This document shows, in pieces, positions 37,517 to 42,899 of a DNA stretch of 48,720 nucleotides. The notes under the pieces are model-generated. The model did no database searches, was not told where the DNA came from, and was given only the letters and a program-made list of their open reading frames with translations. Position 1 is the stretch's first letter. Every line of letters starts with the position of its first letter. A program made the position numbers and the translations under genes. The DNA comes from a virus. Taxonomy: Duplodnaviria > Heunggongvirae > Uroviricota > Caudoviricetes. The DNA lies in IMG/VR virus record IMGVR_UViG_2541047815_000004, one strand, 5' to 3'.

Positions 37517-39808
37517 TCATATGTTTCCGCGATAAATCACATTCAAAGCCCGTCGAGAGTAAGACATCAGTTCACCTGGCGTGATGGGTTCTGATGATGC
37601 CTGAGGGTTCGTGTCATGATGATAGCGACCAGCATAATTGTTAATTTCATTCAACTCAGGTACCAGTGATTTAGCGAAGAATAACGGATCGCTCGGTTGT
37701 GCTTGTGCAATCTGCGCTACTACCTCTCCAAACAGATTTCCCGGTGAAATTTGCCCCGGGAAACGACGATGCAGATACCCTTCAAGAAGCGGTCTGATCG
37801 CCACCGCCGTATCGTGAAGCTGATGATGAGCACCATCGGCAAATCCGCTCACCAGACGATGATTTTTATAGTAGGGAGATTCACATTCCAGATCGATATC
37901 TAGTTTATCCAAGCTACTGAAATCACCAGCAATGTTGACAATGCGTAAGGTTGAAATGTCCTGCATTTGAGTAGCAGGTATTTTCAGGAACTCATCTCGC
38001 ATGGTACGGATAAAGAACAGGTCGTGCGCCAAGATGATTACCTGCAAGCTGCGAAGGTAAATCTGTTTAATGATGGTGATTGTGTGGTTCCTGCGATGAT
38101 TGTCCAGACTACACATCGGATCATCAATCACTACAATTTTTCTCTCAAGATCAACGTCATGAAGCAACACTGAAATAAAGAATGCGAAGGCTAGCGTCCT
38201 TTTGTCCCCTTCACTCAATGAGCTCCGGAAACTGGATTCTTCTCCCGTTAGCGAAATCTTTTCCCCTCTAAGTTCAATTGCATATTCAGACTTAGGCTCA
38301 CCGCCGCCAGCATAGTTATAATTAATTTCTGTGATGCGAAAGCTTGCACCAAACTTCATCAATAAATCATTGATGGAGGATTGATACTTTCCAAGGGTCG
38401 AGTCCATGATCGCATTGAGTTCAGCCCTCCGTGTTTCCTTCAGTTCAGAGGCAACCACTTCAGCAGTTTTAGCGGTCTGATAATCAGAGATAAAACCTAC
38501 TATCTCAGGTGATAGACGAAGTCGTGTTGCTTCATACTGGGATAATGTAACCCGCAGGGTTTCTTCATTTTTGGTTTCAAGCGCCTCTTTATAAGCCTGA
38601 ATATCCAGATTGGCAGCTTCCACGCCCGAATTAAAGATAGAAAGCTCATCATTGATTGCAGTTACTGCATCCGCGATTTCTTTTTCATAGTCGCCTTGGG
38701 TCTTTGCAAGCGGATCGTTTTTCTTGGCTTCCGTTAAGCGGTTCAGCGATGATTGAAGACCTTCCAAACTAGCTTTAATTTTATCTAAATCAGGGAGACT
38801 CACGGGCAACTGGAGACAATCTTTCCAATTTTCAGTCACTAAACCAGCCTGCTCAATCTTGCTTTCAAGTAAGGCCAGATTGAAAACGCGCATGGCAGTC
38901 GCCACAACTTTATCTAGGCCTGTGACCTGATTAAGTAAGGCTTTGTATGCAAGATTAAACCGCTCCCGGTAGTACCGGATCAGTTCAATACCCTCCAGGC
39001 TTTGCGTACAGAAAGGACAATATTCGTCTTTTATATAATCAAGGCCGTTGCTCGCCCATCGCTCAAAACCTTCGACATTGATATGGTCAATATGCGCACA
39101 GACGACCTCTTCTGCACCCGCACTGAGGCTGTCATAGCTAGCTGCAAGAGTGGAAAAAAAAGAACTGAAATCAGGAGCGTAAAGAGGTAACGAAAGATAA
39201 CCCGTACGGTTGCGGATCGTCTCTATTCTTTTGCAGAGATCCAGTTCTGATTCGACTAATGCAATTTTTTCCTGAATGTTATCTTCCTGAACAGGCTTTA
39301 TGTATTTTGCTAGAGTTACATTCCCCCGGGCTACTGTCAGCTTTTCACTTGCCAGTCTCGTAACTCTCTTGGCCTCCTCTGCCTTGTCTGATGCATCAAT
39401 AAAAGCAGCCCTCGCGGCTACCGCATCACTGCCCAGCGCAAAACTCAGCAGTCGCTTTCTATGGCTAGCGCTGATTTCACCACCTGAGTAAACATTACGG
39501 TCAACAAAATCTAGGTCGAAGACGTGCACATCTGAATACTTACCATTCCATGTATCGTTATCGTAAATCGCACGATTTCCCTGCGAAAACTGCAGATGAA
39601 TATTTTGAGGGGTCGTTTCCCCAATCGTTTTCCTGTGCCGTACAATATCTGGATTTAATTCAGTGTAGGAACGCAGAATTGACGCAAGGGTGGATTTACC
39701 ACGCCCATTATCAGCATAGACAAAGGTCATTTTTTTAAAGGACATACCAGCAGGACGGATATCCTGGAATAAACCCACGCTGGTAATTTGATGAATTCTT
39801 TCAAGCAT
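37517..39808 (-). CDS. ABC/SMC-type P-loop ATPase with coiled-coil insertion carrying a CxxC motif and an unassigned C-terminal domain, 763 aa; candidate anti-phage defence protein
   Basis: Walker A ADNGRGKST (aa 32-40); about 500 aa predicted coiled coil with CPFC at aa 264-267; signature-like LSEGDK, Walker B KIVVIDDP, D-loop SLD and H-loop ILAHD near aa 530-610; about 150-aa C-terminal domain with RPLLE and HH motifs; AAGGGA Shine-Dalgarno. Confidence 0.6.
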   Translation of the reverse strand: MLERIHQITSVGLFQDIRPAGMSFKKMTFVYADNGRGKSTLASILRSYTELNPDIVRHRKTIGETTPQNIHLQFSQGNRAIYDNDTWNGKYSDVHVFDLDFVDRNVYSGGEISASHRKRLLSFALGSDAVAARAAFIDASDKAEEAKRVTRLASEKLTVARGNVTLAKYIKPVQEDNIQEKIALVESELDLCKRIETIRNRTGYLSLPLYAPDFSSFFSTLAASYDSLSAGAEEVVCAHIDHINVEGFERWASNGLDYIKDEYCPFCTQSLEGIELIRYYRERFNLAYKALLNQVTGLDKVVATAMRVFNLALLESKIEQAGLVTENWKDCLQLPVSLPDLDKIKASLEGLQSSLNRLTEAKKNDPLAKTQGDYEKEIADAVTAINDELSIFNSGVEAANLDIQAYKEALETKNEETLRVTLSQYEATRLRLSPEIVGFISDYQTAKTAEVVASELKETRRAELNAIMDSTLGKYQSSINDLLMKFGASFRITEINYNYAGGGEPKSEYAIELRGEKISLTGEESSFRSSLSEGDKRTLAFAFFISVLLHDVDLERKIVVIDDPMCSLDNHRRNHTITIIKQIYLRSLQVIILAHDLFFIRTMRDEFLKIPATQMQDISTLRIVNIAGDFSSLDKLDIDLECESPYYKNHRLVSGFADGAHHQLHDTAVAIRPLLEGYLHRRFPGQISPGNLFGEVVAQIAQAQPSDPLFFAKSLVPELNEINNYAGRYHHDTNPQASSEPITPGELMSYSRRALNVIYRGNI

Positions 39809-40101
39809 ATAAATCCCTTTTTCTTCGCAATTTTTACCGCTGTGGATTGAGATTAGAACAAGATGAATACTAGTGCACCGTCCTACTAGGAGGATTTTTT
39901 CTGGTGTTGACTCCGTTTGGATGCAGTTAACATATCACGGTTCTGCTCCCCACAGATTGATGCAGATAGATGTTAGTAACGTCTGCTCCTGGCACAAAGC
40001 GGACAACCACGCCAGATCTACCCTGTGCCATGAAAAATGAGAATGTCAATTCACTCCTGAACTAATGCTTTTTAATCTAGTAACGTCTAAAATACCTAAC
40101 A

Positions 40102-40503
40102 TTATCCCTGATAAAATGCCAGTATGCGCTGCATAACTTCACTCATCCGGCACTCGCGACAGATTATGTTTAGGCGACTGTCGTAGCGACGTATTTCTCC
40201 ATCAGGTAACGACCAGATAAGGTCCGGATCAACCACAGCTGTTTTCTTCACCTTTGCCCTCGAGAGTTTTTTGCGGGCGTTTTGCCAGTCCTTACGCGCC
40301 TGTTCAGACGGGAATAACCCGTAGCCGGAGTTGTATACATCGCCACTGGCTACCAGCTCTCTGGCAAGAACGCTCATCAGATATCTAGTCGCACCTGTTT
40401 TAGCTTCCAGTTGCCGTAACGTCTCACGACCGCTCTGGCGCACGAGTTCCACCACCTGCCCTTTAATTTTTTCCCGCTCTTCTTGTGTAAAAACTTTTGC
40501 CAC
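40102..40503 (-). CDS. Hypothetical 133-aa basic protein, GTG start with strong AGGGGGA Shine-Dalgarno
   Basis: Between the O-like replication gene and the ATPase; Lys/Arg-rich, possible HTH; no homologue recognised. Confidence 0.45.
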   Translation of the reverse strand: MAKVFTQEEREKIKGQVVELVRQSGRETLRQLEAKTGATRYLMSVLARELVASGDVYNSGYGLFPSEQARKDWQNARKKLSRAKVKKTAVVDPDLIWSLPDGEIRRYDSRLNIICRECRMSEVMQRILAFYQG

Positions 40504-40543
40504 AAGTCCCCCTTAAAATTACCTCATGACCTGAAATCAAAAC

Positions 40544-41509
40544 TTATCCTCTGAAACCAGGCGGAATTTCTGTATCCGGTTCAGAAATATGATTAACACA
40601 ACGCTGTACAGGTGAACGCCCTAGGCGGATGACCAGTTCGTCCCATTTTTCGCGGAGCTTTGACGGGCTCATGATGTTTTTTACCCAGAATGGATCCCGC
40701 TGTACCCGACCAAACATTTCACAAATTTGTCTGTGGCTTCTGCCATCCAGCATCCGCATTGTGCGCACATCATTGGCCCAGACAGTCCAGTTAGGCTCTT
40801 TTGGTCGCATGATCTCGCCATCATCACTGGCGGCCTGTTCGTAGAGACCCACGATCCGCCCCCATATCCACTGCGCACACGCCAGATCCTCCTGGCTACC
40901 CCACTGGCGTTTTTTCGCACTAAACACAACTGCGCCAGGGTGCCGGATTAAAAAATCCTGTTCAGCCGTCTGCGGGTCCGGTTGCGAAGCTTCCGGACGA
41001 AAAGTGTTTTTATTCTCTGTAGTAATCTCTGTTGTATTCTCTGTAGGATCATCGGGCCATTTTGACCCGATGACATTGGGTCGTTTTGAACCAATGGAGC
41101 GTTTCATTTTGACCTCTTCCATCGTGTCATTTTGACCTGATGGAGCGGCGCATTTTGAACCGATGGATTCGCTCAATTTGCCATCATCTAAAAGCTCGCT
41201 CCCATAGTTAATCGTGTAGAAATTGGTCATATCGCGCTTTGATTTATTGAGCTTTTCACAACGCAAAAGCCCCAGCGTTTTCAGACTTGCAAACGCGCGC
41301 TTTAACGTTGACTCTGACCAGAATGGGAACTGTTCCAGCCATTGTTCCGTTGTGTTGTAAATCCAGCGAACACCATCACATTCCATGCCGGAATTGGTAT
41401 CTCTCAACCAGTAATGCAACTGCTGCAACACAATGGCTTCATTTAAGCCAATCTTCATCGCAAGCTGTGTGTTTATAACCAGTGGGCGTTCAGCAAAAAG
41501 AAGGCTCAT
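40544..41509 (-). CDS. Replication initiator, lambda O-like N-terminal domain, about 321 aa from Met19
   Basis: N-terminus MSLLFAERPLVINTQLAMKIGLNEAIVLQQLHYWL resembles the gpO N-terminal domain; gene contains an internal iteron array and AT-rich stretch like ori-lambda. Confidence 0.6.
   Translation of the reverse strand: MSLLFAERPLVINTQLAMKIGLNEAIVLQQLHYWLRDTNSGMECDGVRWIYNTTEQWLEQFPFWSESTLKRAFASLKTLGLLRCEKLNKSKRDMTNFYTINYGSELLDDGKLSESIGSKCAAPSGQNDTMEEVKMKRSIGSKRPNVIGSKWPDDPTENTTEITTENKNTFRPEASQPDPQTAEQDFLIRHPGAVVFSAKKRQWGSQEDLACAQWIWGRIVGLYEQAASDDGEIMRPKEPNWTVWANDVRTMRMLDGRSHRQICEMFGRVQRDPFWVKNIMSPSKLREKWDELVIRLGRSPVQRCVNHISEPDTEIPPGFRG
41058..41173. repeat. Five direct iterons (consensus CATTTTGACCnGATGGAGCG) at 23-bp periodicity: candidate replication origin inside the O-like gene
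   Basis: Copies start at 41058, 41082, 41105, 41128 and 41151; flanked at 41006-41046 by an AT-rich stretch with two TTCTCTGTAG repeats. Confidence 0.6.
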
Positions 41510-42011
41510 AATTCCATCCAGCTTTTTGTTGGTATTGCTGTCGATACGCAAGTTTGAAAGCAATTGCTTTTTCTATAAGTTCGTCAGTTTCACGATCCAC
41601 TACGGCAGGATCAGCAAAAAGCAGTCCGGACTCCACCACATCGCCATATTCTTTGTTTAACCCGGCGATCATGTACGTGATGCTTTTTCCGTCACTAATT
41701 TCACGATACAACCTGAAATCATTAATCCGGATAGCCTCCATAATTGCAGGCACTAGCGCCGTGAACTTTTCACGCTTATCCCTGGTGTCGATAGCCTTCC
41801 AGCGTTCGAATATCTTCACTCGATTAACGCCAAGCGCTCGCTGATCAACCGCGCCACCTTCATCTGTGACACGCTGAACATCGATGTTCGGGCGCTCTTT
41901 CAAAGCCCAGAATGCTTCAGTGATTAATATCGTCGCCTGCTCCTGTGTCATTCCTGGTCGACATATCCAGGCATCCAGAGCCTCACGAGCCTGTTCAGGA
42001 GTGATTTTCAT
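41490..42011 (-). CDS. YdaT-like protein, 173 aa, in cII-equivalent position
   Basis: Directly downstream of the Cro-like gene; internal segment KIFERWKAIDTRDKREKFTALVPAIMEAI resembles Rac YdaT as recalled. Confidence 0.5.
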   Translation of the reverse strand: MKITPEQAREALDAWICRPGMTQEQATILITEAFWALKERPNIDVQRVTDEGGAVDQRALGVNRVKIFERWKAIDTRDKREKFTALVPAIMEAIRINDFRLYREISDGKSITYMIAGLNKEYGDVVESGLLFADPAVVDRETDELIEKAIAFKLAYRQQYQQKAGWNYEPSFC

Positions 42012-42222
42012 TGTTCAACCGCCCCGCCCGCTTCGTCTTACGATATTCGTCATAAACCTTGGGATCATACAGAAGCTCGCCGCCAGATGCCTCCTGTAGA
42101 CGCATCGCGCGACCTTCAGGAACTAGCTCTTGCCATTGAGAAACAGCAGATGGGTCAACGCCAGCAGCTTTCGCTACTTTGGCTTTCGTACCGTAAAAAT
42201 TAATTACGTCTGATTTAAACAT
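41995..42222 (-). CDS. dicC: Cro-like (YdaS/DicC family) transcriptional regulator, about 75 aa from Met10
   Basis: C-terminal half LVPEGRAMRLQEASGGEL.YDPKVYDEYRKTKRAGRLNNENHS matches DicC as recalled; divergent from dicA. Confidence 0.75.
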   Translation of the reverse strand: MFKSDVINFYGTKAKVAKAAGVDPSAVSQWQELVPEGRAMRLQEASGGELLYDPKVYDEYRKTKRAGRLNNENHS

Positions 42223-42234
42223 CGCACCTCCAAT

Positions 42235-42250
42235 ATTGAGTTTTCTCAAT
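42235..42250. promoter_or_regulatory. Candidate operator palindrome in the dicC-dicA divergent intergenic region
   Basis: Perfect inverted repeat ATTGAG-TTTT-CTCAAT, followed by three TCAAG(G) direct repeats at 42260-42280. Confidence 0.4.
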
Positions 42251-42299
42251 GCTAATCACTCAAGGAATCTCAAGTCAAGGGTTATTAAGATATCTAAAT

Positions 42300-42707
42300 A
42301 TGAACGAGAAAACTTTAGGTCAACGCATTAGAGAAAGACGTAAGCAGGTAGGCTTAAGTCAAAACGGTTTAAGCAAAGCTGCTGGCGTATCTGGCTCATC
42401 AATTTCATTATGGGAAAGTGACCATACAGCCCCGCGCGGGCAAAATTTGCATCGCCTCGCCGAGGTATTGCAATGTTCACCAACCTGGATACTGTTTGGC
42501 GACGAGGACAAAACACCAGCTCCCCCTGTTTCACTCGATAGTGCCTTAGACTTATCGGAAGATGAGTTAGAGATGCTGCGTTTGTATCGCGCACTTCCTA
42601 AATCAGAGCAACAAGCACAACTCAGCGAACTCCGCGCCCGCGTTGAGAATTTTAATCGCCTGTTCACCGAGCTATTAGAGGCTCGCAAACGCAACAAGCA
42701 TCAATAA
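42300..42707 (+). CDS. dicA: Prophage repressor, HTH XRE family (P22 C2-like), 135 aa from Met18
   Basis: HTH segment LSQNGLSKAAGVSGSSISLWESD and C-terminus VLQCSPTWILFGDEDK...RARVENFNRLFTELLEARKRNK match DicA as recalled. Confidence 0.85.
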   Translation: MNEKTLGQRIRERRKQVGLSQNGLSKAAGVSGSSISLWESDHTAPRGQNLHRLAEVLQCSPTWILFGDEDKTPAPPVSLDSALDLSEDELEMLRLYRALPKSEQQAQLSELRARVENFNRLFTELLEARKRNKHQ

Positions 42708-42899
42708 TCATCCCTTCACAAAATTTTAAAGCCTTACATTTCAATGTATTGGCTTTATCTTGCGCCAATGCTTGAGTTTTCTCATCAAAAAACCTTGACG
42801 AAAAATAATGAGAAAACTAAATTACCTCCATCAACACACCGCACGGTGTTCTCAGCAAACAGTTCCGCTACCCCGGCGTTAAGGGGAAATGAGGTCAGC

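Follow-up and report, generated by a model that had tools for sequence, protein, structure and literature searches.

A probable theta-replication origin within the linker of the initiator gene of a lambda-like Escherichia coli phage

The window, i.e., the whole 48,720-nt (48.7-kb) stretch of viral DNA analyzed here, carries on its minus strand a 966-nt gene that is labelled 'replication initiation O-like' or 'DNA replication protein O' in near-identical phages. Its product matches the PHROG 391 family ('replication initiation O-like') over the full length of the profile (E-value 3.1e-92, residues 17-321 on profile positions 11-298 of 298). In the isolated phage HannyBb, the gene is 97.5% identical and is the sole replication gene annotated. 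Both the list of open reading frames and the annotation of relatives place it after a cro-like and a cII-like gene. The gene in the cII position (41490-42011, minus strand) matches PHROG 163 ('CII-like activator') as well as the Pfam family YdaT_toxin, and the first 20 nt of the initiator gene lie within it. The initiator is followed by a DUF977 ('Ren-like'/LygF) gene (40102-40503, minus strand), and a 763-aa AAA_13/SMC-like ATPase is encoded just downstream of the replication genes (37517-39808, minus strand). The ATPase matches the PADLOC candidate defence family PDC-S06 (7e-72), with weaker similarity to PrrC and LmuB; it looks like a defence moron, since HannyBb and PhiR42_1 carry other small genes at that position (only a small methyltransferase gene and short genes are annotated there). 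A known RNA element is unlikely, as Rfam gave no match on 39800-42800 at E <= 1. A -1 frameshift site considered at AAT AAA AAC was rejected as non-canonical and not kept in relatives. The features of the locus that bear on replication are as follows.

42249..42278, minus strand: candidate pR-like promoter, from a consensus scan only; it would serve the cro-like, cII-like, and O genes and carry transcription across the origin
40544..41509, minus strand: O-like replication initiator gene, 321 aa, 966 nt, ATG at 41509 and stop at 40544 (open reading frame list)
41195..41509, minus strand: N-terminal winged-helix domain, aa 1-105, presumed to bind the iterons (AF2 model)
41166..41188, minus strand: iteron 1, degenerate, core GGCAAATTG (repeat search and relatives)
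41143..41165, minus strand: iteron 2, half-palindrome or half-site, CATCGGTTCAAAATGCGCCGCTC
41120..41142, minus strand: iteron 3, CATCAGGTCAAAATGACACGATG
41097..41119, minus strand: iteron 4, core GGTCAAAATG without palindromic arms, in the same form in relatives
41074..41096, minus strand: iteron 5, palindrome with compensating arm changes CATTGG...CCAATG (repeat search)
41050..41072, minus strand: iteron 6, adjoining the 12-mers, the best palindrome, CATCGGGTCAAAATGGCCCGATG on the coding strand
41011..41046, minus strand: three tandem 12-mers, ACAGAGAWTACW, proposed DNA-unwinding element, 27% GC, encoding TENTTEITTEN
41000..41010, minus strand: A-rich tail of the AT-rich block, AAAAACACTTTT on the coding strand
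40976..40998, no strand assigned: tentative inverted repeat GTCCGG-N11-CCGGAC just past the AT-rich block (compare the lambda ori palindrome)
40628..41071, minus strand: region homologous to lambda O aa 135-270, linker plus C-domain (BLASTP)
40547..40603, minus strand: DnaT-like C-terminal tail, RCVNHISEPDTEIPPGFRG, corresponding to E. coli DnaT residues 161-179 and to NCBIfam DnaT 160-179

The AlphaFold (AF2) model of the N-domain (pLDDT 86.8) has a winged-helix topology. Its best matches in the PDB were the N-terminal domains of the plasmid initiators 4pql, 4pt7, and 5kbj, which we take to be pTZ2162 and pSK41 RepA (RepA_N plasmid initiators), followed by MarR/ArsR-type regulators, with modest scores throughout. 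The matches to the plasmid initiators are weak (E ~1e-3, TM 0.5-0.56), and we counted this against reading the locus as an origin. Sequence searches of Pfam (E <= 0.01), NCBIfam, and the PDB yielded no family for the N-domain, the DnaT-like tail being the sole notable sequence match of the protein. Likewise, among the matches listed from a search of 5.8 billion proteins, none of 120 homologues has a Pfam domain over this region. By contrast with the phage initiator, which has no Pfam match, lambda O scores 5.7e-36 on PF04492 (Phage_rep_O), and the hhalign comparison of the N-domain profile with the lambda O N-domain detected no relation (probability 0.05%). The C-terminal part is homologous to lambda O, with 34% identity over 148 aa for residues 147-294 (BLASTP, E 3e-27). 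The description of the protein as an O-like initiator in the first-pass annotation therefore holds for the C-domain and does not extend to the N-domain.

The last 19 aa of the initiator are identical to the C-terminus of E. coli DnaT, RDVNTVSEPDSQIPPGFRG, at 14 positions, which probably explains the annotation 'Primosomal protein I' in the mEp460 records. The ..P.GFRG tail occurs in members from Escherichia, Citrobacter, Enterobacter, Raoultella, Pantoea, and Scandinavium regardless of their C-domain, whereas members from Pseudomonas, Acinetobacter, and Firmicutes lack it. Many of the latter have acidic-aromatic ends, and the Firmicute tips ..FDDET, ..EPDFDF, ..DDLPF, and ..ELPW look like the SSB C-terminal tip; such tips may be host-specific recruiting motifs with the role that the DnaT-like tail has in Enterobacterales. 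No gene for a loader or helicase of the P, DnaC, or DnaB type follows the initiator, as assessed also over the whole genome of the relative PP925841, and none is annotated anywhere in the nearly identical HannyBb. The lack of a loader gene was counted against the origin reading; it is also the reason for proposing that the C-domain and tail recruit the helicase directly. From the resemblance of the sequences, we infer that the DnaT-like tail recruits host primosome or helicase components. The extreme C-terminal tail of DnaT is not discussed in the paper on the preprimosome structure (PMC13377028).

Six head-to-tail 23-bp units with the core GGTCAAAATG occupy nt 322-458 of the initiator gene on the coding (minus) strand, with spacings of 23, 23, 23, 23, and 24 bp. 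The unit is the imperfect 23-bp palindrome CATCGGGcCATTTTGAcCCGATG; four copies are strong, one has the core only, and one is degenerate, and inverted-repeat arms are present in at least three. The repeat search returned the plus-strand unit CATCGGGCCATTTTGACCCGATG at 41050, 41074, 41120, and 41143, again with inverted-repeat arms within the units, and Tandem Repeats Finder reported a period of 23 with 3.7 copies at 41084-41167. A scan with CATTTTGACCNGATGG allowing up to three mismatches found copies at 41058 (1 mismatch), 41082 (3), 41128 (0), and 41151 (1), and the copy at 41105 fits this motif over its first 10 bases only (CATTTTGACC). Altogether, the window contains nine such matches, four of them in the iteron block, compared to 1.9 expected, and none of 100 shuffles reached nine. 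Exact copies of GGTCAAAATG number three in the window (41058, 41105, and 41128), all in the iteron block. Thus, the copy starts given by the first-pass annotation (41058, 41082, 41105, 41128, and 41151, at 23-24 bp) were recovered with their periodicity by the pattern scan and Tandem Repeats Finder, and its array of five equal iterons became one of six units, four of them strong. At the position of the degenerate iteron 1, the Klebsiella and Enterobacter relatives have a good GGTCAAAGTG unit. The nearest DnaA box (TTATCCACA-like, up to 1 mismatch) lies more than 4 kb from the iterons, which is neutral for the origin reading, as lambda ori has none either. A single GATC is found at 41047-41050, between the last iteron and the first 12-mer, and recurs in many, although not all, enterobacterial relatives (GATGATCYTACAGAG).

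Along the direction of transcription, the iterons are followed immediately by an AT-rich block (41000-41046), in the same order as in lambda. Its 41000-41039 part has a GC content of 27.5%, the lowest 40-nt value within the profiled region 40400-41700. The first-pass annotation had noted here an AT-rich segment with two repeats; the low GC content stands, and the repeats proved to be three tandem 12-mers, which read ACAGAGAATAC-A, ACAGAGATTAC-T, and ACAGAGAATAA-A on the coding strand and adjoin the iterons. The block is short (~47 bp) and moderately AT-rich, and this too was counted against the origin reading. The inverted repeat beyond it could be due to chance because its arms are only 6 bp long.

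We further assessed the arrangement in homologous loci. A search of viral contigs for the N-domain yielded 80 copies from E. coli that were all identical and thus showed no divergence, and a scan of one genome per species was used instead. It gave 80 loci with the N-domain (45-100% identity), ranging from Enterobacterales to Bacillota. Repeats were called periodic if at least three copies of a 9-mer occurred 22-24 nt apart, or at multiples of this distance, within 260 nt past the N-domain. By this measure, periodic repeats follow the N-domain in 55 of the 75 usable loci, compared to 2 of 645 control windows taken within these loci, and the repeat-positive loci span Enterobacterales, Pseudomonas, Acinetobacter, Lactobacillaceae, and Clostridia. 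The first-pass annotation had named the absence of the repeats from homologues as evidence that would speak against an origin, and in many genera they are present. The remaining 20 homologues, mostly from Bacillus and Neobacillus, showed no periodic repeats by the 9-mer criterion, and the iteron arrangement is thus not universal. Several metagenome-binned contigs assigned to Veillonella, Bacillota, and Collinsella carry the E. coli-type N-domain with 100% identity and probably represent mis-binned E. coli prophage DNA.

The iterons of the relatives are N4-CAAAWTG-N4' palindromes with flanks that change with the clade of the N-domain (e.g., GGTCAAAATGACC, GGGCAAATTGCCC, GGACAATTTGTCC, GGATCAAAATGATCC, GTATCAAAATGATAC, and ACGACAAATTGTCGT). 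In Klebsiella and Pantoea phages, the N-domain, iterons, and 12-mers are kept next to an unrelated C-domain, Phg_2220_C, and lambda shares the C-domain with other iterons. The iterons therefore follow the N-domain rather than the C-domain, a pattern that is expected if the N-domain binds the iterons. Based on these comparisons, the best reading of the N-domain is that of an uncatalogued DNA-binding domain with a new iteron specificity on a lambda-type plan.

The 12-mers conform to the consensus W-A-C-A-G-A-G-A-N-T-A-C, of which 10 of 12 positions are near-invariant across phyla, whereas the iterons vary. The [CA]AGAGA motif occurs at 7.2 copies per kb within 350 nt past the N-domain compared to 0.47 per kb elsewhere in the loci. 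At least two copies were found in 59 of 76 loci, spaced 12 nt apart 94 times and 11 nt apart 6 times. When viral contigs were scanned for a pair of tandem 12-mers, 80 loci were obtained, in 48 of which the N-domain is detectable 77-269 nt upstream. In most of the others, the array lies mid-gene in proteins of 270-490 aa and has its own upstream repeats. These proteins have remoter winged-helix-like N-termini with a shared ..LSQ..YW...DGWFYKS..EW..ETGL.. pattern (identified by eye) and varied C-domains, including lambda-O-like ones and the DnaT DNA-binding domain; some contain an HNH insert. The HNH endonuclease domain in such initiators is located between the winged-helix N-domain and the repeats. 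The distant initiator of IMGVR_UViG_3300013646_000002 combines the iteron-plus-12-mer layout with a subsequent full DnaT DNA-binding domain (PF17948, 3e-10). Judging from these loci, a large superfamily of initiators is marked by an invariant 12-mer array beside iterons that vary. Literature searches aimed at the initiator family, its iterons, and the 12-mer motif found no description, the older subscription literature being mostly beyond reach.

We consider it likely that the segment ~40976-41188 is the theta-replication origin of this lambda-like E. coli phage, located inside the linker of its own initiator gene. Iteron binding, melting, helicase recruitment, and origin activity are predicted from the sequence, and the process would run as follows. 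Transcription from the pR-like promoter would produce the O-like protein and traverse the origin. Dimers of the N-terminal winged-helix domain would then bind the 23-bp dyad iterons, four strongly and two weakly, and the 23-bp phasing together with A-tracts would wrap the DNA into an O-some-like complex. The resulting strain would melt the adjoining 36-bp 12-mer array (27% GC, with a purine-rich coding strand), after which the lambda-O-like C-domain and the DnaT-like tail would bring in the host helicase machinery directly.

Beyond easy melting, the 12-mers may have a further role, since their sequence is fixed, which mere AT-richness would not need. We tentatively suggest that the W-ACAGAGA-N-TAC array, which immediately follows the iterons and comprises 2-5 tandem copies, constitutes a sequence-specific element of the origin that is common to a very large winged-helix initiator superfamily that is uncatalogued in Pfam and distributed in phages and prophages of Proteobacteria, Firmicutes, and other phyla. 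If so, the variable iterons would set specificity and the invariant 12-mers would set the site of opening and helicase entry, with the DnaT-mimicking tail replacing a dedicated loader in the enterobacterial members. Candidates for the recognition of the array are a conserved face of the initiator that binds one strand, in a RepE/TrfA-like loop-back, as well as a conserved host factor; alternatively, the array could act through its purine-rich transcript.

The main competing account of the array thus leaves the segment an origin and makes the 12-mers a second sequence-specific site, which a conserved face of the initiator would bind in double- or single-stranded form, or the site of an R-loop formed by the purine-rich transcript. 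This is possible, if somewhat doubtful. The near-invariance of the array next to variable iterons speaks for it, and there are precedents: RepE and TrfA hold the double-stranded iterons and the single-stranded unwinding element together in one initiator according to the loop-back model (PMC10602881), lambda O binds A/T-rich single-stranded DNA (PMC7466680), and SPP1 oriL has 11-12-nt purine-rich direct repeats bound by gp38. However, the array also accompanies very divergent N-domains; if a protein binds it, either the binding surface must be highly conserved or the partner must be a host factor.

Plasmid iterons also have control functions, and the units could accordingly be initiator sites for regulation only (autorepression, a transcription roadblock, copy control, or incompatibility), with replication starting elsewhere. 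We regard this as unlikely, because pattern scans of the window found no other repeat-plus-AT-rich cluster of the iteron motif, the order of iterons, AT-rich block, and palindrome is that of the mapped lambda origin, and conservation of the block goes along with that of the only replication gene. Still less probable is the explanation that the linker DNA is kept as a junction for swapping initiator modules rather than for replication. The N-domain-plus-origin and C-domain modules are clearly shuffled at the linker, but selection for recombination alone is weak, and recent exchange cannot explain a conservation of linker DNA that holds between phyla in which the flanking protein is only ~50% identical.

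The linker is under selection at the DNA level. Translation of the five good cores yields IGSK three times, SGQN once, and EVKM once, i.e., all three frames are used, and the same was observed in nearly every homologous locus. The iteron is therefore a DNA repeat and not a peptide repeat, and the repeated SIGSK peptide proposed in the first-pass annotation is retained only as the IGSK reading of three of the cores. Mean pairwise identity at third codon positions among nine enterobacterial relatives is 0.58 for the N-domain, which is well conserved as a protein, 0.81 for the iteron block, 0.97 for the 12-mers, and 0.65 after the 12-mers; the higher values in the iterons and 12-mers point to selection on the nucleotides. 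All 127 Glu codons of the tandem xExT peptides are GAG, compared to 376 of 831 in the remainder of these genes (p = 7e-40), and 239 of the 240 Thr codons are ACA or ACT, with ACC never used. Although 174 of the 191 [CA]AGAGA copies lie in one frame, some 12-mers read in another, as TRDY. The notion of a repetitive low-complexity inter-domain linker (IGSK, TENT) without a DNA role, to which the three IGSK cores and the in-frame 12-mers had lent some appeal, is largely refuted by these frames, codons, and third positions.

These results would locate the likely origin of a prophage family that is widespread in E. coli. Of 5426 complete E. coli genomes, 1893 (~35%) contain the segment 40990-41200, nearly always on the chromosome; ATCC 25922 carries it in identical form. 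In these genomes, the initiator gene is usually annotated as 'hypothetical protein'. The combinations of the same N-domain and iterons with different C-domains, and of the same C-domain with different iterons, form a natural comparison set for initiator specificity. Should the 12-mer shared across phyla be a recognized element, genomes lacking annotation could be searched for phage origins with a simple sequence signature, and the positioning of strand opening would become easier to study. Because this phage lacks a loader gene, its DnaT-like tail suggests a route by which a phage initiator may tap the host primosome.

Among iteron plasmids, those with RepE of F and TrfA of RK2 resemble the phage locus in that phased iterons of ~22 bp adjoin short tandem repeats (13-mers) in the unwinding element. 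In contrast, origins of this Rep_3/TrfA type are intergenic and have DnaA boxes, none of which are nearby here. The RepA_N plasmid initiators, which provided the best structural matches of the N-domain model (4pql, 4pt7, and 5kbj), are also similar in layout: RepA_N plasmids have iterons inside the rep gene, between the DNA-binding N-domain and a host-specific C-domain. However, the phage protein has no RepA_N match in Pfam (E <= 0.01), the fold match is weak (TM 0.5-0.56), and the comparison is of a plasmid with a phage.

SPP1 oriL, located in gene 38 (G38P), and ORF20 of 80-alpha likewise place the origin within the initiator gene, with direct repeats followed by an AT-rich unwinding element (PMC6316719, PMC5499656). 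The ORF20 mutant of 80-alpha was refractory to complementation in trans (PMC5499656). The SPP1 repeats are short 11-12-mers rather than the 23-bp palindromes found here, the product of gene 38 has no family label in common with our initiator, and SPP1 and 80-alpha, unlike this phage, encode their own loader or loader plus helicase.

By definition, lambdoid origins comprise iterons and an AT-rich region, the iterons numbering four in lambda and six in Stx phages (PMC7466680). The Stx phages P27 and 933W share with this locus the number of six iterons and the position of the four strong ones nearest to the AT-rich block (PMC7466680), the distal unit being degenerate here, but their iterons have lambda specificity and they encode lambda-type O and P proteins. 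The claim of the first-pass annotation that the locus mirrors ori-lambda is supported. Both origins are found midway through the initiator gene, in the part that joins the DNA-binding and C-terminal domains, with the repeats at nt 322-498 here and the iterons at nt 349-433 of lambda O compared to nt 322-458. In both, dyad iterons about two helical turns apart lead to a purine-rich AT-rich block and then to a short inverted repeat, the site in the pR operon follows cro- and cII-like genes, and the C-domains are homologous (34%, E 3e-27). The differences are that the iteron sequence is unrelated (CATCGGGTCAAAATGGCCCGATG here compared to TCCCTCAAAACGAGGGA in lambda), that six units recur at 23 bp instead of four at 20-24 bp, that the N-domain lies outside PF04492 and bears no detectable resemblance to that of lambda O, and that this phage has a DnaT-like tail, no P gene, and an AT-rich block made of a regular 12-mer array. 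Judged by its anatomy, the arrangement is in kind the textbook lambda plan of iterons followed by a putative unwinding element, and what goes beyond the textbook is the conservation of the 12-mers across phyla and the loader-less design with a DnaT-like tail; the superfamily of uncatalogued N-domains likewise deserves attention.
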